Below are positions 7,254 to 48,909 of a stretch of DNA of 64,000 nt, piece after piece. The notes beneath the pieces are model-generated. The model was given only the letters and a program-made list of their open reading frames with translations, did no database searches and was not told the DNA's origin. This stretch comes from Berkelbacteria bacterium GW2011_GWE1_39_12 (GTDB lineage: Bacteria > Patescibacteriota > UBA1384 > UBA12157): the NCBI GenBank assembly GCA_001029735.1, contig CP011213.1, positions 396,613 through 460,612 on the forward strand, given 5' to 3'. Every line of letters begins with the position of its first letter. The stretch's first letter is position 1. The position numbers and the translations under genes were made by a program.

Positions 7254-7284
7254 AAGATTGCTTCGCTTACGCTCGCAATGACAA
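7254..7284 (+). repeat. palindromic element family A, half copy (AGATTGCTTCGCTTACGCTCGCAATGAC)
   Basis: It shares the right arm of the family-A element. Intergenic. Confidence 0.6.
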
Positions 7285-7290
7285 ACTCCT

Positions 7291-7375
7291 TTATCCCCAG
7301 TTTATTGACGCGCTGTGGATAACTAATTAATATAAGGTTAGAGTGGTTGTGGACAACTTCCCTGTGGACAACTCT
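7291..7375. promoter_or_regulatory. DnaA-box cluster upstream of dnaA
   Basis: TTATCCCCA at 7291, TGTGGATAA at 7314, TTGTGGACAA at 7347 and CTGTGGACAA at 7362. Confidence 0.6.
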
Positions 7376-7419: not shown

Positions 7420-8811
7420 ATGAAAACCTTAGACGAGAAAGAAACTTGGCAAGCGGCGCTCGGCGAACTGGAAGTGGTTTTTTCCAAGGCTAATTATTCA
7501 ACTTGGTTTAAAGACACTTTCGTTTTAGAAATCGCTGAAGATGAGATTACGGTCGGCGTACCAAATGCCTTCACTAAAGAATGGTTGGAAAATAAATACC
7601 ACCCGCAGATTTTTGAAGTCTTAAAAAAGATTCACCCCAATTTGAAAAACGCGACTTATGCCGTCGCCACTAATTCCGCCCGGCAAGCGCCTAAAATCGA
7701 TAGTGCAGACAATTCAGATATTAATCTAAAACCGACACAAAGTTATACTCCGACTCAAATCCCTGTTGCCGACAAACCTCAACCCGCTTTCAATCTTAAT
7801 GCGCATTACTCTTTTGATAATTATGTCGTCGGTAATTCAAACCGTTTAGCCATGGCCACCGCTCAAGCGGTTGCCGCCAACCCGGGCACTGCCTATAATC
7901 CCCTGTTTATTTATGGCGGCGTCGGTTTGGGTAAAACCCATTTGGTTCAAGCCATCGGTAATGAAATTATTGCTAAAAGTCCTAAGAAGAAAATTGTTTA
8001 TGTTTCCTGTGAGAAGTTTACCAATGATTTTATTGCTTCGATATCGGATAAAAAAACGAATGAATTTAAGAAGATGTATCGCGATGCCGACGTTTTAATG
8101 GTTGATGATATCCAATTTATGGCTGGAAAAGAAGGGACTCAGGAAGAATTCTTCCATACTTTCAATGCGCTTCACCAAGCCAATCGGCAAATTGTTATAA
8201 CCAGCGATCGCGTGCCGAAAGCCATCCCGCAGCTCACTGACCGCCTTTCCTCGCGTTTTGGCATGGGAATGGTCGCAGATATCCAACCGCCTAATTTAGA
8301 GATGCGTCAGGCGATTTTAAGAAACAAATGTGCAGAAAAGCAGTGCAGTTTAACCGACGACGTAATCGATTATATCGCTCAAAATATTGAATCCAATATC
8401 CGTGAACTCGAAGGCGCGATTACCAGAATTCTTACTTATTCTCAGATGAACGATGTTTTACCTTCACTCGCCATAACCACTAAGGCCTTAGAAGATATTA
8501 TTTCCAATAAAAATAAAATTATTTCTGTGGAAAAGATGTTGCAGATGACAGCTGATTTTTTCAATATCACCACTGTCGATCTTATTTCCGCTAAAAGAAA
8601 TAAAGAATTAGTGAGACCCCGCCAGATTGTAATGTATTTAATGCGCCATGAAATGAGCCTTTCTTATCCTAAAATTGGCCAACATCTAAACAAGAAAGAC
8701 CATACGACAGTTATACACGGCGTGGAAAAAATCGAAAAAGAAATTGCACGCGATGTGGAATTGCATAAAGAGCTGACGGCATTAAAAGAAAAAATGCACG
8801 CATTCAATTAA
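7420..8811 (+). CDS. dnaA: chromosomal replication initiator protein DnaA
   Basis: A 463-aa protein with Walker A GGVGLGKTHL, an AAA+ domain and C-terminal DNA-binding domain IV. RBS aaggag upstream. Confidence 0.95.
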   Translation: MKTLDEKETWQAALGELEVVFSKANYSTWFKDTFVLEIAEDEITVGVPNAFTKEWLENKYHPQIFEVLKKIHPNLKNATYAVATNSARQAPKIDSADNSDINLKPTQSYTPTQIPVADKPQPAFNLNAHYSFDNYVVGNSNRLAMATAQAVAANPGTAYNPLFIYGGVGLGKTHLVQAIGNEIIAKSPKKKIVYVSCEKFTNDFIASISDKKTNEFKKMYRDADVLMVDDIQFMAGKEGTQEEFFHTFNALHQANRQIVITSDRVPKAIPQLTDRLSSRFGMGMVADIQPPNLEMRQAILRNKCAEKQCSLTDDVIDYIAQNIESNIRELEGAITRILTYSQMNDVLPSLAITTKALEDIISNKNKIISVEKMLQMTADFFNITTVDLISAKRNKELVRPRQIVMYLMRHEMSLSYPKIGQHLNKKDHTTVIHGVEKIEKEIARDVELHKELTALKEKMHAFN

Positions 8812-9110
8812 AAACTTGAAGAAAATGGCGTAGTTGTGGATAACTTGTGGATAACTTTAGAAATTTGCGTCTCACGTGTGGATAAGTAAGTTTATAAAGT
8901 TCCAATTTTCATCAAAGACTGACTTATACACACGTTTTCCCCCTGTTTATACACAGTTTATACCCCACTTTTCCACATGCAAAACACCCGTTAATCCCCA
9001 CAATCCACAGCCCTTATTATTACTGCCTTTTTTCTTCTTTAAGAATTATTAATATATAAGTGTGGATAAGTCCGGATAAATATTGAGCAAATAACAAAGA
9101 AAGGAATTAG
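8812..9110. other. oriC candidate: DnaA-box cluster plus AT-rich unwinding element between dnaA and dnaN
   Basis: Perfect TGTGGATAA boxes at 8835, 8846, 8877 and 9061. TTATACACA at 8925 and 8947, plus degenerate boxes at 8958, 8970 and 9002. AT-rich stretch at 9020-9060. Confidence 0.75.
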
Positions 9111-10217
9111 ATGATAGTTTCATGTACACAAGAGAATTTAGCTAAAGGATTAGGTTTAGTTGGACGATCAGTCGGAACGAGAACGACTTTACCGGTTTTA
9201 AATAATATTTTAATCAAAACAGAAAAAGGCCGGCTTAAACTTTCAGCCACAGACTTGGAAATTGGGATTCATACGTGGGTTGGCGCCAAGGTTGATGAAG
9301 AAGGAGCTCTGACAATTCCGGCCAAACTTCTATTGGATTATATTAATACCAATAATGATAAGACAATCGATTTTTCTGCCAAAGATTTAACTTTGCATTT
9401 AAAGTCGGAGCATTATAAGGCAAACATTAAAGGTATAGATGCGGCTGAATTCCCTCTTATTCCTGAAGTTAAGAAAGCGGAAAGCTTGGAAATTCCGGTA
9501 GCCAGCTTTTTAAACGCCATCACAAAAACTCTAATTTCGACGGCTTTAGATGAAAGTCGCCCGGTACTTGCCGGAGTCTTCTTTAAGGCCAAAGGTAACA
9601 CACTGAAAATGGTTGCGACTGATTCTTATCGCCTTTCAGAGCAAACAGTTATTTTAAATAAGAAGATTGATAATGAAGTTGTATTTATTGTGCCACAAAA
9701 AACTTTGGCTGAAGTTGGTAGAATTCTATCCAATGCCGGTGAAGTAGTTATAGTTTCTGCCGGGGAAAACCAGGTTGAGTTTAAATTAGGCGAAACAATT
9801 CTAGTTTCACGTTTAATCGAAGGTACTTTCCCTGATTATGAACAAATTATTCCAAAAACAGTGAAGACAACTGTAGTTGTGAAAGCCTCATTATTTTCTA
9901 ATGCGATTAAAATGGCGTCATTATTTGCCAGAGAATCTGCCAACAACATCAAGTTAAAAATTGAAGCACCAGACAAAGTTTCCGTTTTAGCTGTCTCCCC
10001 TCATTTGGGTGATAATACTTCAGAAATAACCGGTCAAGTTAGTGGCGAAGGAATTGAAATAGCATTCAATGCTAAATTTTTAAGCGATGTTTTAGCGGTG
10101 ATAAATTCGGAAAACGTTAAGTTGGAACTATCGTCAAACTTAGCAGCTGGATTGATTAAGGCTGAAAAAGACAATAACTTTCTCTATGTGATCATGCCGT
10201 TAAGAGTTGATGAATAA
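9111..10217 (+). CDS. dnaN: DNA polymerase III beta sliding clamp
   Basis: A 368-aa three-domain clamp in the conserved position after dnaA. Confidence 0.9.
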   Translation: MIVSCTQENLAKGLGLVGRSVGTRTTLPVLNNILIKTEKGRLKLSATDLEIGIHTWVGAKVDEEGALTIPAKLLLDYINTNNDKTIDFSAKDLTLHLKSEHYKANIKGIDAAEFPLIPEVKKAESLEIPVASFLNAITKTLISTALDESRPVLAGVFFKAKGNTLKMVATDSYRLSEQTVILNKKIDNEVVFIVPQKTLAEVGRILSNAGEVVIVSAGENQVEFKLGETILVSRLIEGTFPDYEQIIPKTVKTTVVVKASLFSNAIKMASLFARESANNIKLKIEAPDKVSVLAVSPHLGDNTSEITGQVSGEGIEIAFNAKFLSDVLAVINSENVKLELSSNLAAGLIKAEKDNNFLYVIMPLRVDE

Positions 10218-10240: not shown

Positions 10241-10320
10241 GTCATTGCGAGTGCAACGAAGCAATCTTGGAAACAATAGATTACCGCGCCTTTCAGACAC
10301 TTATCCACGGACGCAATGAC
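10241..10320 (-). repeat. palindromic element family A, full copy, intergenic, reverse orientation
   Basis: GTCATTGCGAGtgcaacgaagcaatcttgg...cacttatccacggaCGCAATGAC with terminal inverted repeats. It contains a DnaA-box-like TTATCCACG. Confidence 0.65.
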
Positions 10321-10349: not shown

Positions 10350-11420
10350 ATGAAAATTACCTCTCTTAAACTCGAAAACTTTCGTTCTTGGCCAGAATAT
10401 CATTTAGATCTTACTGATATTACTATTTTAATTGGTAAAAATGGCGTTGGTAAAACTAATGTCTTGGAGAGTCTATGGTTTTTAAGTAGTTCACGTTCTT
10501 GGCGGACTCGAGAAGAAATAGAATTGGTGAATTGGGGTAAAGAATATACCAGAATATCAGCCAAGATTGAGGTCGAAAATACACCTCATGATTTGGAACT
10601 ATTTTTTTCTAAAGGTTCACCTAATGTAAAGCCGGGCAAGCAACTAAAAATAGACGGTGTTAAAAAACGCCTGATTGAAATTGTCGGCGGCTTGCCTTCA
10701 GTCTTGTTTAGCCCAGAGACAATCGATTTGGTTTCCGGCGCGCCTGGCGCGAGAAGAAAATTCTTAGATATTCTCCTTTCGCAAACCGACAGACACTACG
10801 TCTTGGACTTAATAGAGTACGGCAAGGTTACCAAAGAGAGAAATAAGTTATTATTGCGGTTGAAAATGAAACGGGCGAAGCCCGATGAATTGGATTTTTG
10901 GGACAAAAAATTAGTTGAACTAGGCACCAGAATAATTAAACAAAGGTTAGAAGCAATTAAGTTTTTTAATAAGTATTTGAGTGAAACTTATCATAAGATT
11001 GCTAATAGCGACGAAGAATTAAAAATAAAATATCACCCGTCGGTTGACGAGGATCGCTTTATGGATATATTGGTCGCCGGTCGTGAAAGAGATATAGAAC
11101 AGAGCGCCACCAATTACGGGCCGCATCGAGATGACTTTGGCGTTTATTTGGGCGGGCGTAATATCGCCTCTTTCGGTTCACGCGGTGAATATAGATCAGT
11201 GGTTTTATCTTTAAAGATTTTAGAGCTCAAGTTTTTAGAAGAAAAAAGGGGTGAAAAACCCATTTTATTATTAGATGATATTTTTTCCGAACTCGATTCT
11301 GAACGCCGGATGCATTTAGCAAAGATTGTTCAGGATCAACAGACGATTATAACGACAACAGATATCGATCATATCGAAAAATCTTTGCGGACTAAGGCCA
11401 AGATTGTGGATATAAAGTAA
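10350..11420 (+). CDS. recF: DNA replication and repair protein RecF
   Basis: A 356-aa protein with Walker A GKNGVGKTN and the SMC-like signature LSGGE-like region (GGRNIASFGSRGE). Conserved position after dnaN. Confidence 0.9.
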   Translation: MKITSLKLENFRSWPEYHLDLTDITILIGKNGVGKTNVLESLWFLSSSRSWRTREEIELVNWGKEYTRISAKIEVENTPHDLELFFSKGSPNVKPGKQLKIDGVKKRLIEIVGGLPSVLFSPETIDLVSGAPGARRKFLDILLSQTDRHYVLDLIEYGKVTKERNKLLLRLKMKRAKPDELDFWDKKLVELGTRIIKQRLEAIKFFNKYLSETYHKIANSDEELKIKYHPSVDEDRFMDILVAGRERDIEQSATNYGPHRDDFGVYLGGRNIASFGSRGEYRSVVLSLKILELKFLEEKRGEKPILLLDDIFSELDSERRMHLAKIVQDQQTIITTTDIDHIEKSLRTKAKIVDIK

Positions 11421-25728: not shown

Positions 25729-28006
<2,278 letters not shown>

Positions 28007-28035
28007 TTGTATCTTTCTGTAATTATAACTCTTTT

Positions 28036-28103
28036 GTCTTTCCGGACCGGTTGGTAAACAGGATCCGGAATCTATCATATGGATCCTGAATCATGTTCAG
28101 GAC
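28036..28103. repeat. palindromic element family B copy, between a duplicated atpG 5' end and the real atpG start
   Basis: gtctttccggaccggttggtaaacaggatccggaatctatcatatggatcctgaatcatgttcaggac. A second MPNTKEI-coding segment lies at 28098-28118 (minus). Confidence 0.55.
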
Positions 28104-28140
28104 TTCGATTTCTTTTGTATTTGGCATTGATTTTCTTGGT

Positions 28141-28209
28141 GTCATCCCGAGCTTGCCGAGGGATCTAGATTCGAGATTCCTCCACTCGCTATTGCTCGGT
28201 CGGAATGAC
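28141..28209. repeat. palindromic element (GTCATCCCGAG...CGGAATGAC)
   Basis: A 69-bp element with terminal inverted repeats in the atpA-atpG intergenic region. Confidence 0.55.
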
Positions 28210-28281
28210 ATTTACTCTTGACTACTTGGTTGACTTGTGATAACATTTATTCGAATTTGGATATCAAGCAGGAGGAAGAAA

Positions 28282-28539
28282 ATGATAGTTGTTCTGAATA
28301 TTGTGAAGTATCTTTCGTTCTTGATCACAGGGCTTTGTGCAATAGCGGGCGTAATGTTTATTGCAACTGCGCCACTCACTCTTGGTGTGTCAGTTCATAT
28401 AGCTAACATTGCCAAGGCCATTTGCATTATCTTTGTCTCTTCGCTGGCTCTGGCTTTCCTCTCAAGCAATCTGATTGACTGGTTACAGAGAAGATATCGG
28501 ATGAACAACGGCCAGATTCAAATTATGGTTCAACGCTAG
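28282..28539 (+). CDS. hypothetical small membrane protein embedded antisense within the atp operon
   Basis: An 85-aa ORF with two predicted TM helices and RBS aggaggaagaaaATG. It is flanked by palindromic elements. Confidence 0.3.
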   Translation: MIVVLNIVKYLSFLITGLCAIAGVMFIATAPLTLGVSVHIANIAKAICIIFVSSLALAFLSSNLIDWLQRRYRMNNGQIQIMVQR

Positions 28540-28597
28540 GATTCATTAGCGCTTGAAGTTTCTACTTCCGGCGCTTTTTTAAATTGCCAAAACTTTT

Positions 28598-28674
28598 GTC
28601 ATTCCGGAAAGAAAGGGTTTCTTATCCGGAATCTATTGGATCCCGGATACTGTTTGCTAACCGGTCCGGGATGA
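28598..28674. repeat. palindromic element family B copy
   Basis: gtcattccggaaagaaagggtttcttatccggaatctattggatcccggatactgtttgctaaccggtccgggatgac. Confidence 0.6.
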
Positions 28675-28677
28675 CAG

Positions 28678-30207
28678 CTATGCTTTGTCTATTCCCTTGG
28701 TATTTTCTTTTAAAAACGCTGTCAACTTCTCTTCACACTTTTCATCAATTACTCCTGAATCAGAAATACTTTTTAAAACATCGGCGATTTCGCCCTTGGC
28801 TTTAGTCGATAAAGTCTTTTCTAAAGCGCTGATTTCGGAAACTTCATAACTATCAAAATATCCATTCGTAACGGCATATAAAGTAATAACCTGTTCGGCA
28901 ACTGGAATCGGTTGGTTGTTCACTTGTTTTAAGACTTCGGTAATTCTGCGGCCTCGTTCTATCTGGCGCTTAGTATCTGCATCCAAATCAGATGAAAACT
29001 GAGCAAAAGCTTCCAGTTCTCTGAACTGTGCCATTTCCAACTTCAATTTACCGGCAATCTTTTTCATGGCTTTGATCTGAGCGGCGCCGCCGACACGGGA
29101 AACGGAAAGGCCGGCGTTTAAAGCAGGGCGAATACCTTTGTAAAACAAATCGTTCTCTAAAAATATCTGACCATCGGTAATAGAAATAACGTTGGTTGGA
29201 ATATAAGCGGAAATGTCCCCTGCCTGGGTTTCAATAATCGGAAGAGCGGTAAGTGAACCGCCGCCATTCTCTTTATTTAATTTGGCTGCGCGTTCTAATA
29301 GGCGAGAGTGTAAATAGAAAATATCGCCTGGGTAAGCTTCGCGGCCTGGCGGGCGACGGAGCAGCAAAGAAATCTGTCTATAAGCCCATGCATGCTTACT
29401 TAAATCATCGTAAACGATCAATGCGTCCCGACCATTGTCGCGGAAAAATTCGCCCAAACTAGCGCCCGCGTAGGGTGCCAAATAGGCAAATGAGGCTGGA
29501 TCGGAAGCGCCGGCTAAAACGACAATTGAGTTATCCATCGCTCCAGTTTCTTCAAGTGTATTGATTAATTTAGCGACCTTAGATTCTTTCTGACCGATGG
29601 CAACATAAATGCTAATGACTGGATCTTTGCCTTCTTCTTTGGCAATTTTGGTTTGATTAATAATCGCATCGATAGCAATCGATGTCTTTCCCGTGCCACG
29701 GTCGCCAATAATGAGTTCTCTTTGGCCACGGCCAATTGGCACAATGGAATCGATGGCTTTAATACCAGTTTGCAAAGGCGTATTGACGCCTTCTCGGGTA
29801 ATAACGCCGGGGGCAATCTTTTCAATTGGCGCCATAAGATCAGTTTTTATCTCACCCTTACCATCGAGTGGTTGGCCTAAAGGATTTACCACGCGACCGA
29901 TCATGGCTTCACCGACTGGGATTTCCAAAATCTTACCAGTAGATTTAACTGTTGAACCGGCAATGATTTTTTCAGTTTCGCCTAGTACAATAGCGCCGAC
30001 AGTGTCGCGCTCAAGGTTTAAGATCACACCGAAGACGTCTGTTCCTTCGAACTCAATCATTTCCATGGACTTGGCTTGGCTTAGACCATAGATTTTGGCC
30101 ACACCGTCGCCGATTTCAGTGACAACGCCGGTTTGTTCCAAACTCTGCTCATCGGAAAGATTTTCGATTTTCTTTTTGATTTCTTCTAAAATTAAGTCGG
30201 TATTCAT
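28678..30207 (-). CDS. atpA: F0F1 ATP synthase subunit alpha
   Basis: Walker [12 protein letters not shown] and a conserved alpha subunit sequence. Confidence 0.95.
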
Positions 30208-30321
30208 TTTACTCCTAGTTTATAAAGTCAAAAGTCCTTAAAGTCTGTAAAGTACATGGAAACTTTTGATAGTAAAACACCTCGTACTTTAAAAACTTTA
30301 TAGACTTTATGACTATTTAAG

Positions 30322-30819
30322 CTAACTTACTAATTTTTTAAGCTTTGATTGGAAGCTATTATCGTAACTTAACCCGTCGATCTCGACAATGACTCCTCCC
30401 AGAAGTTCTGGGGAAACTCGGCTTTCCAAAACTACCGGGACGGACATTTTAATTTCTAAATCATTTTCTAAGTTTTCAATCTCTTCGTTTGATAGAGCGC
30501 TACTAGAAGTAACTAATCCGCTCAAAGCCGTTTTTTCATCACGTAGAATTTTTTTAAATTCGTTAACAATTTTGCTGAAATTTTTCAATCCGTTTTCTTC
30601 AGTTAGAAAAATTAAAAAATTTAATGTATTTTTGTTAAAATTTTCAGAAAAAAGTTCATTTACGATTGTCTTCTTCTTATCGATAGATAGTTTCGGATTA
30701 AACATCATCTTTTTAAATGAGTTTAAGGCGAAAACTTTTTCCAGCATCATCAACTCGATTAATCCATCCTTGGATTTCTCGGTGTAAGAATCGGCTAATT
30801 GTTTTGGTGTGTATGACAT
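30322..30819 (-). CDS. atpH: F0F1 ATP synthase subunit delta (OSCP)
   Basis: A 165-aa protein with the C-terminal LLGGVIVEIDG motif, in operon position. Confidence 0.75.
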   Translation of the reverse strand: MSYTPKQLADSYTEKSKDGLIELMMLEKVFALNSFKKMMFNPKLSIDKKKTIVNELFSENFNKNTLNFLIFLTEENGLKNFSKIVNEFKKILRDEKTALSGLVTSSSALSNEEIENLENDLEIKMSVPVVLESRVSPELLGGVIVEIDGLSYDNSFQSKLKKLVS

Positions 30820-30830
30820 AATTTGGTTTT

Positions 30831-30903
30831 GTCATCGCGAGGAGTGAAAACGACGCGGCGATCCTTCAAGATTGCTTCGCTCGTTTCATTTGCTCGCAAT
30901 GAC
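30831..30903 (+). repeat. palindromic element family A, full copy, atpF-atpH intergenic
   Basis: gtcatcgcgaggagtgaaaacgacgcggcgatccttcaagattgcttcgctcgtttcatttgctcgcaatgac. A further half-like copy ends at 30985 (ttcgctcaggatgac). Confidence 0.65.
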
Positions 30904-30999
30904 GCTCTAAAATTTCTTCGATGCTTATCTAAAGCATCTTTTTGCATTTTCAAAGATCTTCGACTTCGCTCAGGATGACACTCACAACTTTATGTCTTA

Positions 31000-31491
31000 C
31001 TACTTTTTCTCATATTCGCTAGTAGCTTCTTCTAATGCCGATTTTTGCATCTCTGGCGATACTTTTTCTTTCAAAATCTTTTCTGTGGCCAAACCAACTA
31101 AACCGATAATATCTTTTTGCAAAGCTTCTTTGGCGGCTTCCTTTTCTTGATTAATGGCAATTTTAGCTTTAGCAATTTCTTTTTCTGCTTGACTCTTGGC
31201 CAAAGTGACAATTTCTTCTTTTTGCAAAGTGGCAGCCTTGTTTCCTTCTTCAATAATCTTAGCTGATTTTTCTTCAGCTTGATTGATTATTTCTGTTACC
31301 CGTTTTTCCGTACTGGCTAAATTTTCTTCAATCTTCTTGGCATTTTCTAAACTTTCCGCAATTTTCTTGCGGCGTTCTTCCAGCATGTTGACCAAGGGCT
31401 TATAAGCAAATTTGGTCAAAATAAAAAGAAGAATCAAAAAATTGATAATTTGGCCGATAAAAAGTTTTAAATCGATACCTAATGCTTCCAC
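31000..31491 (-). CDS. atpF: F0F1 ATP synthase subunit b
   Basis: An N-terminal TM helix followed by a long charged helix. Confidence 0.8.
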   Translation of the reverse strand: MEALGIDLKLFIGQIINFLILLFILTKFAYKPLVNMLEERRKKIAESLENAKKIEENLASTEKRVTEIINQAEEKSAKIIEEGNKAATLQKEEIVTLAKSQAEKEIAKAKIAINQEKEAAKEALQKDIIGLVGLATEKILKEKVSPEMQKSALEEATSEYEKK

Positions 31492-31530
31492 GAATTCTCC
31501 TAAAAGTCGCTTTTTAAGCGAAATTGCTGC

Positions 31531-31761
31531 TTAAGCAATAAATTTCAAAATCAAAGCGATAACCAAAGCATAGACTGCGATGGCTTCGGCAAAAGCGGCC
31601 ACTAAAATCATCGAGCTTTGAATTTTTGGAGCGGCTTCAGGGTTTCGTCCGATGGCTTCCATAGCTTTTGCTCCGACTAAACCGATGGCAATAGCTGGGA
31701 CTGCGCCGCCGATAGCGATTGTGCCGGCAACGGCTAATAATTTCATTGATTCTGCGTCCAT
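31531..31761 (-). CDS. atpE: F0F1 ATP synthase subunit c
   Basis: A 76-aa hairpin proteolipid with GLVGAKAMEAIGRNPEA. Confidence 0.85.
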   Translation of the reverse strand: MDAESMKLLAVAGTIAIGGAVPAIAIGLVGAKAMEAIGRNPEAAPKIQSSMILVAAFAEAIAVYALVIALILKFIA

Positions 31762-31791
31762 TTGAATCCTTTCTTTCTCTTATTTTATATT

Positions 31792-32610
31792 TTAACCTCG
31801 ACTAAAACCAAATTTTTCTGGAATAAGGCCATCTTTTTCCTCGACTTTTTCCTGCGCTGTTTGTTCTGAATGATCTTCATGAACTATAGTTGCGGTTTGC
31901 AGGAAAACGGCGGTTAGCATTGAAAAGACCAAGGCCTGAATAAATCCGACAAACAGTTCCAGTCCATAAAACGGAATGGCGGCAATAACCGGAACCAAAA
32001 AGGAGATAACCATGAGCAAAACGGAGCCTGCAAAAATATTACCGAAAAGTCGAAAAGCAAATGAGATAATGCGGGAAAGTTCTGAAACGGCTTCTAAAAA
32101 TCCTACAAAAAAATCTATTGGTCCTTTAAAGTTAATAAATTTTTTGAAATAACCTATTCCTAAATGGCGGATACCGTAAATTTGAACTGTGACAATCGAG
32201 ATAACGGCTAGTGCAAAAGTCGTATTTAAGTCAGCAGCCGGTTGACGGAACAATGGAACAAGAATATGGTGGCCTTCTTCGTTGATCTCGTTTAATCCGA
32301 TAGATTCGAATCCTGGGACTAAGCCGATCCAGTTGGCAAAAATTACAAAAATAAATATGGTAGCTACCAGTGGTAAAAATTGAATCGCCTTTTTACGGTT
32401 CTGAGTGATGCCTTCGATCATAGCCAAAATGGCTTCGACGACGAATTCGCAAATATTTTGCAATTTGCCAGGAGTATTAGAGAGTTTTTTACTGACTCTA
32501 ATTGCGATAGCGCAAAGAAAAATTACTACAATCCAAGTAACCAACATCGAATTGGTGATGGCAATTGGACCGATTTCAATAATTTTTTCAGCGGCAAGTG
32601 AAATATGCAT
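31792..32610 (-). CDS. atpB: F0F1 ATP synthase subunit a
   Basis: A multi-TM protein with the conserved Arg region ISFAFRLFGNIFAG. Confidence 0.85.
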   Translation of the reverse strand: MHISLAAEKIIEIGPIAITNSMLVTWIVVIFLCAIAIRVSKKLSNTPGKLQNICEFVVEAILAMIEGITQNRKKAIQFLPLVATIFIFVIFANWIGLVPGFESIGLNEINEEGHHILVPLFRQPAADLNTTFALAVISIVTVQIYGIRHLGIGYFKKFINFKGPIDFFVGFLEAVSELSRIISFAFRLFGNIFAGSVLLMVISFLVPVIAAIPFYGLELFVGFIQALVFSMLTAVFLQTATIVHEDHSEQTAQEKVEEKDGLIPEKFGFSRG

Positions 32611-45127: not shown

Positions 45128-47323
45128 TCATTTTGGCCAATGTGCGGTGATCAATTGTTCTTCGTTGACTAACCCATTTTCTTTCAAATTTTGCCAAATT
45201 TTCTCGGTCACAAAAGGCATGAATGGGTGAAGCAGTTTAAGAGTAGTCTTTAAAGTGTAAAGTAAAATGTATAAAGTATTTTCTTTCAACTCTGGCGTAT
45301 CAACTTGGTTTTTACTTGCTTCTATATAAATGTCTGCAAAATCGTGCCAAACAAAATCGTATAAGTCATGGGCGGCTTGGCCAAAGCGAAAGTTATCCAA
45401 ATTTTCATCTGTCGACTTAATCACTTCATTTAATCGAGATAATATCTGCTTATCTGCTTCGGTTTTTGGCGCTAACTTGTCATTGCGAGAAGCCGAAGGC
45501 GACGCGGCAATCCAGTCATTATTAGAGATTGCTTCGCTGTTGCTCGCAATGACCATGTTATCTATTTGCATCATGGTGAACCGGGCAATATTCCAAACTT
45601 TATTGGCAAATTTTTGAGCGGCTAAAATAGCTGCTTCATCAAATTTCAGATCTTGAGTCCCAGTATTGATGTACATTAGACCAAATCGGGTAGCATCTGC
45701 TCCATATTTGTCGATCAAAAGTAGAGGATCAACCCCTGTGCCGAGCGATTTACTCATACGCTTACCTTCTTTATTGAAGACGGTTGGATGAATATAGACT
45801 TGAGAAAATGGTTTTTCTTTCATTAGCTCTAATCCGGAGAAAATCATTCGAACAACCCAAAGCATATTAATATCTCGAGCGGTACTTAAAATGGTGGTAG
45901 GATAGAAATAGGAAAGATCGTTTAATTTGTCATCGCAAGATTGCTTCGCCTGTTGGCTCGCAATGACATCCTTTGAGGCGCCGCCCAGAGGGCTCTGCCC
46001 GGCGGGCCAACCCAGAGTGGCAAAAGGCCACAAGGCAGATGAAAACCAAGTATCCAAAACATCTGTCTCGCCTTCGATTGGAATAGTGTGCCCCCACCAA
46101 ATTTGTCGGGAAATGCACCAGTCACGAATATTATCCATCCAGTCGATATATACTTTTTTCCATCGATCAGGAGTAATTTTTATCTCATCATTTTTGATCG
46201 CTTCGAGGGCCGGCTTGATCAATTCCGACATTTTTAAGAACCATTGCTTTGATGGTTGAGGCTCGATCTCTCTGTTACAACGATAGCAAACACTTAAATT
46301 GTTGGTGATATCTTCTTCTTTTTCCAGTAAGTTTTCTTCTTTTAGCCATTCAACTATTTTTTCCCTTGCCTCTTTGGCTTTTAACCCTTCATATTGGCCG
46401 GCCTCTTTGGTCATTTTCCCATATTGATTGATAACTTTAACTATATCTAAGCCATTTTTTTCGGCCATTTCATAATCAACCAGTGAGTGGGCAGGAGTTA
46501 CTCCAACGGCGCCGGTACCAAAAGTCATGTCAACATTTCGGTCGCCGATAACTCTTATCTCTCGTTTTACACCAGCAAAGTTAACTGTGAAAGTTTTATC
46601 AATGTATTCTGCATATCTTTTGTCTTTTGGATTCACAGCTACACCAGTATCACCCAGTTTAGTTTCTGGTCTGGTAGTGGCAATCGAGATCGGAAAATCA
46701 TTATCATATTTAAAGTAATACAGCTTGGCGGGTTGTTCTATATATTCAACTTCAATATCGGAAAGGGAAGTTTGGCAGCGCACGCACCAGTTAATAACGC
46801 GTTCGCCTTGGTAGATCCAGCCTTTGTCGTAATAATGTTTAAAAGCGGTTTTAACGGCTTCGGTATAACCTTCGTCCATAGTGAAACGTTGTCTTGACCA
46901 GTCACACGAACAGCCCATTTTTTTAAGCTGATCGATAATAATATGGCCTTTTTCGTCAACCCATTGCCATATTTCTTTTTCAAATTCTTCCCGTCCAAGT
47001 TCTTGGCGGGTTTTACCTTCTTTGGCTAACTTTTTTTCCACCACGTTTTGAGTGGCAATACCAGCATGATCGGTCCCAGGAATCCAAAGGGTGGGAATTT
47101 GCTTCATTCGAGCACGACGGATTAAAATATCTTGAATCGTATTATTGAGCGCATGACCCATATGAAGAGAACCAGTCACATTTGGTGGTGGAATGCATAT
47201 AACAAAAGGGACGACAGAAACGTCAGAGGCAATAGGTTTAAAGGCACCAGACTTTTCCCATAACGAATATATATCCGCTTCGGTTTCTTTCGGATTGTAT
47301 GATTTGGCTAATTCTTCTTGCAT
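45128..47323 (-). CDS. valS: valine--tRNA ligase (short form) with two in-frame palindromic-element insertions
   Basis: HIGH-type motif PPNVTGSLHMGHA and KMSKS. 731 aa. Confidence 0.9.
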   Translation of the reverse strand: MQEELAKSYNPKETEADIYSLWEKSGAFKPIASDVSVVPFVICIPPPNVTGSLHMGHALNNTIQDILIRRARMKQIPTLWIPGTDHAGIATQNVVEKKLAKEGKTRQELGREEFEKEIWQWVDEKGHIIIDQLKKMGCSCDWSRQRFTMDEGYTEAVKTAFKHYYDKGWIYQGERVINWCVRCQTSLSDIEVEYIEQPAKLYYFKYDNDFPISIATTRPETKLGDTGVAVNPKDKRYAEYIDKTFTVNFAGVKREIRVIGDRNVDMTFGTGAVGVTPAHSLVDYEMAEKNGLDIVKVINQYGKMTKEAGQYEGLKAKEAREKIVEWLKEENLLEKEEDITNNLSVCYRCNREIEPQPSKQWFLKMSELIKPALEAIKNDEIKITPDRWKKVYIDWMDNIRDWCISRQIWWGHTIPIEGETDVLDTWFSSALWPFATLGWPAGQSPLGGASKDVIASQQAKQSCDDKLNDLSYFYPTTILSTARDINMLWVVRMIFSGLELMKEKPFSQVYIHPTVFNKEGKRMSKSLGTGVDPLLLIDKYGADATRFGLMYINTGTQDLKFDEAAILAAQKFANKVWNIARFTMMQIDNMVIASNSEAISNNDWIAASPSASRNDKLAPKTEADKQILSRLNEVIKSTDENLDNFRFGQAAHDLYDFVWHDFADIYIEASKNQVDTPELKENTLYILLYTLKTTLKLLHPFMPFVTEKIWQNLKENGLVNEEQLITAHWPK
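45479..45553 (+). repeat. palindromic element family A, full copy, inside valS in frame
   Basis: gtcattgcgagaagccgaaggcgacgcggcaatccagtcattattagagattgcttcgctgttgctcgcaatgac. It encodes VIASNSEAISNNDWIAASPSASRND. Confidence 0.75.
45929..45967 (+). repeat. palindromic element family A, short copy, inside valS in frame
   Basis: gtcatcgcaagattgcttcgcctgttggctcgcaatgac. It encodes VIASQQAKQSCDD. Confidence 0.7.
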
Positions 47324-47835: not shown

Positions 47836-48909
47836 CTACAGCTTTAAGTTCGAATCGGCATTGATATTTTCGAATGTCGTATATTTTGACTTGTCCATAT
47901 AAGCGGCGGCAAGGCCGACCATGGCGGCATTGTCGGTACTCAAAACAATCGGGGGGACATGAAAACTGACTTTTTCGTCATCGTGAGGCCAAAGGCCGTG
48001 GCGATCTATTGACGGATTGAGAGATTGCTTCGCCGAAGCTCGCAATGACATTACGGCTTTTTGCATCTGTTCCCTTAACTCTTTGTTAGCGGAAACTCCG
48101 CCACAGAGGCAAATCGATTTTGGTTGGTATTCATATGCTGCCCTAATAGTTTTGTTAATCAAAATATCAACTACAGTTTGTTGAAAAGAAGCGGCGATAT
48201 CTTTTTTATTTTTCTCAGAAAGCTCACCCATTTTTTTAGTTTCATTTAATACGGCAGTTTTGAGCCCTGAAAAACTAAAGTTATAATCTTTTCGGTCGGT
48301 CATCGCTCGAGGAAAATTAAAGGCTTTCGGATCGCCTTCTTCGGCCGCTTTTGATATAGCCGGTCCGCCCGGGTAGCCTAACCCTAATAAATTTGATATT
48401 TTATCGAACGCCTCGCCCGCGGCATCATCTAAAGTTTCGCCAAGAGGTTTGATCTTATCGTAATCCTCCATTAAGACTAGACCGGTATGTCCGCCAGAAA
48501 CGATTAAAAAGAGAGCGGGGAATTGGGGGTGTGGCTCTTCTGCCCAGTTTGAGTAAATATGTCCGAGCCAGTGGTTAATGCCAATAATAGGTTTATTTCT
48601 GGCAAAGGCGTAAGTTTTGGCAAAGTTAACACCAACAAGAAGGGATCCAATCAGACCGGGGCCAACTGTGACAGCAACTAAATCCGGATCAATGCCATTT
48701 AGTGCCTCCTCCACGACAGGTATAATCTTTTCGGCATGAGCTCTTGAAGCTTTCTCTGGAAAAACACCACCAAATTCCTTATGAATGTCGATTTGTGAAG
48801 CAATTACATTCGATAAAATACGGATACCGTTTTCTCCGCCCGCTGGCGGATTTTCAATGACCGATGCGGCTGTTTCATCGCAGCTGGATTCTATGGCTAA
48901 AATATACAT
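47836..48909 (-). CDS. tsaD: tRNA N6-adenosine threonylcarbamoyltransferase TsaD (with in-frame element-derived insertion)
   Basis: N-terminus MYILAIESSCDETAASV and HxxGH motif GHIYSNW. 357 aa. Confidence 0.9.
   Translation of the reverse strand: MYILAIESSCDETAASVIENPPAGGENGIRILSNVIASQIDIHKEFGGVFPEKASRAHAEKIIPVVEEALNGIDPDLVAVTVGPGLIGSLLVGVNFAKTYAFARNKPIIGINHWLGHIYSNWAEEPHPQFPALFLIVSGGHTGLVLMEDYDKIKPLGETLDDAAGEAFDKISNLLGLGYPGGPAISKAAEEGDPKAFNFPRAMTDRKDYNFSFSGLKTAVLNETKKMGELSEKNKKDIAASFQQTVVDILINKTIRAAYEYQPKSICLCGGVSANKELREQMQKAVMSLRASAKQSLNPSIDRHGLWPHDDEKVSFHVPPIVLSTDNAAMVGLAAAYMDKSKYTTFENINADSNLKL
48020..48049 (+). repeat. palindromic element family A, half copy, inside tsaD in frame
   Basis: gagattgcttcgccgaagctcgcaatgac. 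It encodes MSLRASAKQSLN in an inserted loop near the TsaD C-terminus. Confidence 0.65.

Follow-up and report, generated by a model that had tools for sequence, protein, structure and literature searches.

The valine-tRNA ligase (ValRS) gene valS of Berkelbacteria bacterium GW2011_GWE1_39_12 (Patescibacteriota) carries, in frame, two copies of a short palindromic repeat that recurs in other genes and in spacers. The gene lies on the minus strand at 45128-47323 of the 64,000-nucleotide (nt) stretch of DNA analyzed here (contig CP011213.1, positions 396,613 to 460,612; hereafter the window). Judged by its sequence, the repeat, referred to as family A, is a nonautonomous, hairpin-forming palindrome of the CGTC/TGTC-tagged repetitive extragenic palindromic (REP) type. 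We consider it likely that the valS segments are copies of such a repeat that spread by means of an enzyme supplied in trans and were kept by virtue of their harmless length, frame, and site, the shorter of the two probably being a deletion product.

Element 1 (45479-45553, minus strand, 75 bp; GTCATTGCGAG...AGATTGCTTCGC...CTCGCAATGAC) is the full form, in which two CGTC/TGTC-tagged units make up an inverted dimer with a spacer. It is bounded by perfect 11-nt inverted ends and encodes VIASNSEAISNNDWIAASPSASRND at amino acids (aa) 591 to 615. Element 2 (45929-45967, minus strand, 39 bp; GTCATCGCAAGATTGCTTCGCCTGTTGGCTCGCAATGAC) is a short form that matches the family ends at 9 of 11 positions on the left and at all 11 on the right, keeps the 11-mer core GATTGCTTCGC exactly, and encodes VIASQQAKQSCDD (aa 453 to 465). 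The two are 375 bp apart (45929 - 45553 - 1), both lengths are multiples of three, and both elements begin at codon position 1, as given by (47323 - 45553)/3 = 590 and (47323 - 45967)/3 = 452. The positions and frame that an initial annotation had assigned to two in-frame copies are thus borne out by the sequence. Element 1 is predicted to fold as a long hairpin, both as RNA (-27.4 kcal/mol, z -3.2) and as DNA (-18.2 kcal/mol, z -4.0), and for the sense strand of element 2 the predicted fold has -13.9 kcal/mol and an outer stem that includes two G-U pairs.

The host open reading frame (ORF) is intact. Its 731-aa product matches Pfam tRNA-synt_1 (4e-119) and Anticodon_1 (4e-32, beginning at aa 624) as well as Thermus thermophilus ValRS (1GAX; E = 3e-173), has the HMGH and RMSKS motifs, and finds its closest relatives in 66 Patescibacteria ValRS (61-78% identity). 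Both segments are extra sequence relative to other ValRS. In the comparison with 1GAX, aa 592 to 614 (site 1) form a gap in the linker after the NKxWNxxRF-containing helix, and aa 441 to 465 (site 2), which also have no counterpart, fall between GWPE and ETEDL, at T. thermophilus residues 471-473. Conservation in distant ValRS, which would have told against the initial annotation's reading, is not seen: both segments are gaps against 1GAX, and 59 of 118 orthologues have no expansion of the site-2 loop. The initial annotation had suggested mapping the inserts onto loops of the editing or anticodon-binding domain. Neither insert lies within the editing domain (aa 197 to 339, by its match to 1WKA and 1WK9); insert 1 is placed in the linker ahead of the anticodon-binding domain, and insert 2 interrupts the catalytic-domain match. 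An AlphaFold2 (AF2) model computed from a 67-sequence alignment has a mean predicted local distance difference test (pLDDT) score of 86.6, and values below 50 are confined to aa 443 to 465, 594 to 602, and 604 to 614, which are the insert positions. The translated inserts are probably passive loops, predicted by the model to be disordered. An intein, intron, or other removable insert was rejected for want of supporting features, with no further test.

Recurrence of the same DNA outside valS carries the assignment to a repeat family. The end motif GTCATTGCGAG occurs 10 times in the window at up to one mismatch; 0.82 occurrences are expected, and no more than 4 were reached in any of 100 shuffles. 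This recurrence is therefore not due to chance. All six exact occurrences of the core GATTGCTTCGC fall within family copies. The window totals eight copies or relatives (two in valS, one each in atpG and tsaD, three in spacers, and one of a related family), with architectures comprising five dimers, one single, and one deletion form. The atpG copy (27365-27436, minus strand; ORF 27098-28090, Pfam ATP-synt gamma) is a 72-bp dimer, 87% identical to element 1, translated in the VIAS...RND frame into 24 aa, and its residues are extra relative to the solved gamma subunit 9itj_G. In tsaD (ORF 47836-48909, Pfam TsaD), a degenerate 73-bp dimer (47977-48049, minus strand) is read in the second open frame, and aa 286 to 316 of the protein have no counterpart in T. 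maritima TsaD (6nak_B). Another 73-bp dimer occupies the atpF-atpH spacer (30831-30903, minus strand), and a 69-bp member of the related family GTCATCCCGAG...TCGGAATGAC occupies the atpA-atpG spacer (28141-28209, no strand assigned), which brings the palindromic elements of the ATP synthase operon (27098-32610) to three. The remaining copies are a divergent one of 80 bp in the dnaN-recF spacer (10241-10320, plus strand) and an intergenic single unit, or half element (7254-7282, minus strand), which immediately follows a terminator-like hairpin and precedes the cluster of DnaA boxes upstream of dnaA. An Rfam scan of the window returned one tRNA only and no family for the element.

Outside the window, the repeat was charted in two samples. 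In the first, one genome per species was scanned for the two ends lying 10-40 nt apart, which yielded at least 120 stretches; the figures for this sample hold among the matches listed, which include Bradyrhizobium, Pedobacter, Rickettsiales and Tisiphia, Chloroflexi, Omnitrophota, cyanobacteria, and Liptonbacteria. The second, metagenomic sample, unbiased and anchored on the canonical unit GTCATTGCGAGCGAAGCGAAGCAATC alone, gave 126 occurrences, with the unit identical in more than 120 contigs. The unit has the form (C/T)GTC-ATTGC...GCGAAGCAAT-C(CA), and the common arrangement pairs two of them, inverted, on either side of a short spacer. Inverted dimers account for 101 of the 126 unit-anchored occurrences (65-126 bp, mode 80-84) and single units for the other 25. 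The base before GTCAT makes the tag CGTC at 94 and TGTC at 30 of 135 metagenomic unit ends, either tag is present at 10 of the 12 unit ends in the window, and 109 of 118 listed genome elements have C or T at position -1. The stem begins with AT (GTC-AT-TGC). A CCA tail follows the unit at 90 of the 135 metagenomic ends, and the window copies have CTC, CTA, or CTT after GCAAT. Dimers are predicted to fold into long hairpins, with z values of -3.2 to -4.7 against shuffled controls. No target-site duplication (TSD) was found at the valS, atpG, and spacer copies, and direct-repeat counts at the 118 listed copies equal chance expectation. In these, the palindrome extends outward as YY|GTCAT...ATGAC|RR, with no extended target motif seen beyond it, and at most 17 of the 118 lie in long open frames. 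A scan of viral contigs gave only three loci with related ends.

These traits are those of a known class of repeats. The CGTC-tagged REPs (Di Nocera, De Gregorio & Rocco 2013, BMC Genomics 14:522; PMC3733652) include Neisseria dRS3 and R. conorii RPE-4 and RPE-6. They are marked by a terminal CGTC (often TGTC or CCTC), a stem starting with AT, a CCA tail, and a mostly inverted dimeric arrangement. Described units have an 8-9-bp stem beginning with A-T pairs, a 4-5-nt loop, and an unpaired 3-nt tail of consensus CCA, with atypical loops in Bradyrhizobium CGTC-1 (PMC3733652). Family A has the same tag, the AT stem start, a predominance of inverted dimers with a spacer, and no TSD, whereas its unit differs in having a 5-bp stem around 12-15 nt. 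In the terms of that class, "full" stands for a dimer, and the half element at 7254-7282 is a single. The same paper reports that intragenic, in-frame CGTC singles or dimers encode about 8-30 aa beginning with V-I/V and ending in ...ND or ...MT, that in-frame dimers lie in the glycyl- and isoleucyl-tRNA synthetase genes (glyS, ileS) of E. litoralis, and that genes hit twice, such as R. conorii uvrB, are known (PMC3733652). Compared by peptide and description only, the family A peptide VIASEAKQS... resembles none of the listed intragenic peptides of CGTC-1 to CGTC-4 with which it was compared. Patescibacteria and many other phyla with family A lie outside the five phyla surveyed there.

Other families of small palindromes resemble family A more loosely. 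Rickettsia palindromic elements (RPEs; Ogata et al. 2000, Science 290:347, summarized in PMC10969869) are palindromic selfish DNA inserted in frame in housekeeping genes of a reduced genome, in ways compatible with protein fold and function. In-frame insertion of a palindrome into protein-coding genes is likewise a feature of family A. In contrast, classical RPE-1 measures about 150 bp (about 100-150), encodes a conserved peptide, and belongs to a family defined in Rickettsia, while the valS elements measure 39 and 75 bp and have another sequence in another phylum. By description, the sole link of family A to RPEs is the CGTC tag that it has in common with RPE-4 and RPE-6. REPINs, in which two inverted REPs make one long hairpin, also come without TSD, and their singlets are decayed forms (Bertels & Rainey 2011, PMC3116915). 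They differ in their GTAG tag, their cognate REP-associated tyrosine transposase (RAYT) gene with repeats on its flanks, and their typically extragenic location, as opposed to the CGTC/TGTC tag of family A. No RAYT was found here by a weak Y1 search of the window and loci, and none is known for the CGTC class (PMC3733652). [quoted passage not shown] Literature searches with element and peptide strings returned unrelated primer matches only, and those on MITEs or in-frame palindromes of the candidate phyla radiation (CPR)/Patescibacteria returned nothing relevant.

The count of two valS insertions held for the family A copies and has to be raised by one for the gene. A GC-rich insert of 30 nt (45977-46006, minus strand; AGQSPLGGAS, aa 440 to 449) directly follows the conserved GWP and adjoins element 2, within a GC-rich island (45975-46009) of an otherwise 40% GC gene. 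It is missing in orthologues with an empty site, 24 of 118 orthologues have a +10-aa insert at the same point, its predicted fold is no better than those of shuffles, and no further copies of the GC-rich 24-mer beside element 2 occur in the window. It is a separate insertion at the site-2 loop, so that valS holds three insertions. A second assembly of the same population (L001; ENA ERZ28564033, ANAN16-1 scaffold_5101), 99.77% identical over 7.3 kb and the only near-identical contig that turned up, has both family A elements. It shows T for A at the equivalent of 45973, so that TAG replaces the Lys codon located between the GC-rich insert and element 2. Gene calling there consequently splits valS beside element 2, into genes of 450 and 238 aa. 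Clustered differences and a 4-nt indel also set L001 apart from the window at 45616-45634. Both sets of differences could be assembly errors or real polymorphisms.

Comparison of orthologues places these insertions in a wider pattern. In the 67-sequence alignment (A1), inserts of at least 8 aa cluster in four ValRS zones, namely after aa 415, after aa 440, at about aa 592-613, and after aa 673, and these zones hold repeat-derived peptides from several families. At site 2, examined across 118 orthologues, the basal spacer (GWPK-ETEDL, as in Thermus) is that of the 59 unexpanded sequences, and orthologues other than these and the 24 with +10 aa have larger inserts from several unrelated repeat families. 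Site-1 spacers range from 19 to 57 aa. Family A dimers occur at site 2 in orthologues P0003, P0075, and P0077 and at site 1 in P0058 and P0075, with P0075 having one dimer per site, as does the window valS. In the window, P0003, P0077, P0058, and P0021, GTCAT-type elements belonging to two families stop exactly 9 nt short of GAT-YTN (Asp-Leu) codons, and the site-1 right junction is common to the window, P0003 (where the element is of the GTCATCCCGAG family), and P0058. The site-2 dimers of P0003 and P0077 are 82% identical (27/27 in the unit), less diverged than the flanking valS DNA (69-70% identical, 50% at third codon positions). A disordered loop inherited from a common ancestor would be expected to be at least as diverged as its flanks, and the two dimers are therefore younger than the split of the host genes or have been homogenized. 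Under either reading, one codon has been used by elements more than once. By these alignments, several repeat families have made use of both valS sites, which are hotspots of insertion in ValRS throughout Patescibacteria. The repeated targeting or tolerance surmised from the window alone is supported and extended in that several families reuse both sites and GTCAT-type elements end at the same codon.

We propose that family A spreads by cut-and-paste or by copying, in a process that depends on single strands or hairpins and on an enzyme supplied in trans. In a gene-dense genome, copies landing in essential genes would persist only if their length is a multiple of three, their frame is stop-free and innocuous, and the site is permissive, such as a surface or interdomain loop. 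A frame filter is supported by the dimers themselves: four of their six frames are open, and the one in use is the most hydrophilic of these and has the least charge. This filter, possibly along with a real insertion-site preference, could turn two ValRS loops into recurrent landing sites. Several observations weigh against this account. CGTC repeats have no dedicated transposase, and no mobilizing enzyme has been found for them (PMC3733652). Our own search, weak in that it used an approximate IS608 TnpA query, found no Y1/HUH-like transposase ORF in the window or in the 126 loci (~0.9 Mb). The lone unit is a poor hairpin, its 5-bp ATTGC/GCAAT stem around 12-15 nt giving -2.7 kcal/mol as DNA, no better than shuffles. 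A neighbor-joining (NJ) ValRS tree with 100 bootstraps leaves the window sequence unplaced (38% for the best partner, 4-6% with P0003), and for lack of bootstrap support independent gains are inferred from element-versus-flank divergence rather than counted on the tree. The databases searched hold no close relative with an empty valS site, the nearest orthologue outside the same population being 74% identical and the closest one with an empty site being P0007.

The short form itself bears on the deletion part of the account. Aligned with the dimers (alignment A2), element 2 consists of one complete unit (GTCATTGCGAGCCAACAGGCGAAGCAATC, sense strand), to which TTGCGATGAC is joined without a gap. 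The latter represents the final 10 nt (8-10 nt aligned) of the tagged end of a partner unit; the spacer and nearly the whole second unit are absent. The initial annotation had seen in it either a minimal transposable unit or a remnant of precise partial excision. We favor the remnant, as the probable outcome of an in-frame internal deletion within a dimer, a term that describes the alignment better than precise excision. The loss would amount to 33-36 bp (the spacer and almost all of the second unit) and might have occurred by slippage across the hairpin at a short repeat, either CTC, which occurs where unit and spacer meet and again where the right end begins, or GAG in the opposite strand. 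The alternative, that the 39-bp form is a mobile minimal unit inserted into valS as such, appears unlikely, even though it has points in its favor. The same junction, GTCATTGCGAG|ATTGCTTCG...CTCGCAATGAC, recurs in elements of 42-46 bp, a further point against the preferred account: it is found, in unrelated phyla, in 4 of 118 listed end-bounded elements, those in the metagenome-assembled genomes L044 (Fibrobacter), L060 (Caldatribacteriota), and L058 (Omnitrophota) and in L102, and the L044 copy lies within a 460-codon frame and reads VIARNEATKQSRND. In addition, the sense strand of element 2 still folds as a hairpin, and hairpins of 32-45 bp bounded by terminal inverted repeats are common among the matches listed. 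On the other hand, the 39-bp architecture is found in none of the 126 unit-anchored occurrences, 80% of which are dimers and 20% singles. The window has a single such copy, with degraded ends (two transitions in the left end on the plus strand), P0003, P0075, and P0077 have full dimers at that codon, and deletions of spacer plus adjacent bases or unit in CGTC dimers have already been described (PMC3733652).

Three further explanations concern the whole set of insertions. That the segments are native, lineage-specific ValRS sequence or the product of low-complexity drift would agree with a site-1 linker varying in length in all ValRS, yet this idea is refuted and has practically no chance of being right: the same 72-75-bp DNA is found in valS, atpG, tsaD, and a spacer at 64-87% pairwise identity, metagenomic contigs contain the identical canonical unit, and the palindromic structure goes far beyond that of shuffles. 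A more open question is whether the coinciding codons reflect true target-site specificity, by homing to a sequence or structure or to an element already in place, beyond selection for tolerated sites. We hold this possible but doubtful. The nucleotide-exact agreement of right junctions, seen at site 2 in five orthologues and at site 1 in three and involving two families, the youth of the elements relative to host-gene divergence, the bias of flanking bases in the listed matches to YY|GTCAT...ATGAC|RR, and the occurrence of nested or adjacent palindromes (the GC-rich insert by element 2 and the composites in L153, L170, L178, and L208) all argue for it. However, the frame filter fixes the codon phase anyway and an empty site-2 loop offers only about five codon positions, so that coincidence is not very improbable. 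Moreover, the valS, atpG, and tsaD sites show no common target motif, the use of the same loops by non-GTCAT repeat families favors tolerance, and the tree cannot exclude shared ancestry. A bolder extension, which we put forward as speculative and rather improbable, is that the nucleotide-precise reuse of two ValRS loops by different GTCAT-type families, in lineages with elements younger than the host-gene split, would be real targeting, e.g., insertion at or beside pre-existing hairpins, and that selfish palindromes, captured and turned over one after another via a CGTC-class enzyme, would enlarge certain loops of essential CPR proteins.

Co-option of the inserts, with mRNA hairpins pausing translation at domain boundaries or modulating mRNA stability or with loops having a function in the protein, has in our judgment only a slim chance of being the explanation. 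Its appeal comes from both valS sites being at or near a domain boundary, from the two end mismatches of element 2 making G-U pairs on the sense strand and C-A on the antisense strand, and from orientation: all seven two-unit copies in the window, including the two in operon spacers, have one orientation relative to transcription. This pattern is weakened by the peptide filter, which explains the orientation of genic copies and leaves two informative spacer copies; also, half of the orthologues do without a site-2 insert, the occupants come from unrelated families, and disorder is predicted for the loops.

Orientation and end variation within the family deserve mention in their own right. The GCGAAGCAATC-type unit comes first along transcription in the copies at 10241, 27365, 30831, 45479, 45929, and 47977. 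Since the dnaN-recF copy is chromosomally inverted, its genes being on the plus strand, orientation tracks transcription rather than the DNA strand, although on few copies. In imperfect copies (45929-45967, 30831-30903, and the site-1 element of L127), the mismatches between ends are for the most part transitions, pairing as G-U in the mRNA-sense strand and as C-A in its complement. A variant right end, GCGATGAC, is common to several copies, and the end mismatches are therefore not independent events. The 12-15-nt segment of the unit contains GCGAAGC. This heptamer is also included in the invariant core CGAAGCAATC plus its preceding G (alignment A2, columns 18-27, all family copies), and the canonical unit holds it twice, in overlap (GCGAAGCGAAGC). 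GCGAAGC is reportedly an unusually stable DNA mini-hairpin, as worked out by Hirao and colleagues in the 1990s.

Larger arrangements were also encountered. Eight 88-bp family dimers form a regular tandem array with a 121-bp period in L149 (metagenome contig Ga0207055_1035, 3910-4903). Composite elements occur in metagenomic L153, L170, L178, and L208 and in genomic L043, L076, L078, L082, and L106, in which a GC-rich palindrome, CCAACGGGTCGCGCG...CGCGCCCCGTTGG, lies within the second unit of the dimer or straight between two GTCATTGCGAG ends. As GC-rich palindromes lie inside dimers, palindromes nest in one another.

Two features of ValRS architecture were also noted. Some relatives encode a PaaX_M-domain protein immediately upstream of valS, and others have it fused to the ValRS N terminus (960-1037 aa) (orthologues P0025, P0053, and P0077; L002 2372-2878; L127 306-833); the window has none upstream of valS. 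In the zone after aa 415, 22 of 67 orthologues have a 14-66-aa segment (W...YVGxNPP) where Thermus ValRS has a 32-aa insert. It is often filled by repeat-derived peptides (KSKVKT, NLEIRNSDLEI, and similar), and the window ValRS is without the whole segment.

The chromosomal replication origin probably lies in the window. DnaA-box clusters (TTATCCACA, exact or with one mismatch) at 7291-7371 and 8835-9069 flank dnaA (7420-8811), dnaN (9111-10217) and a recF-like gene (10350-11420) follow downstream, and the cumulative GC skew has its minimum near 4-6 kb. The single family A unit at 7254-7282 adjoins the first of these clusters.

In-frame insertions of CGTC-REPs or RPEs in housekeeping genes, including aminoacyl-tRNA synthetase genes and double hits, were described between 2000 and 2013, and our findings are not new in kind. 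New are the ATTGCGAG-type family, the host phylum, the cross-phylum breadth, and the orthologue-wide map of ValRS hotspots. In practice, such repeats lengthen proteins and can seed spurious small ORFs; in L001, the valS call is split beside element 2. CGTC-type palindromes of Rickettsia and alphaproteobacteria thus also colonize essential genes (valS, atpG, and tsaD) in the ultrasmall genomes of Patescibacteria, and the ATTGCGAG family is spread over many phyla. The comparison of ValRS orthologues provides a natural map of where 10-35 extra residues are tolerated and a clean data set on site choice by elements versus mere selective filtering.

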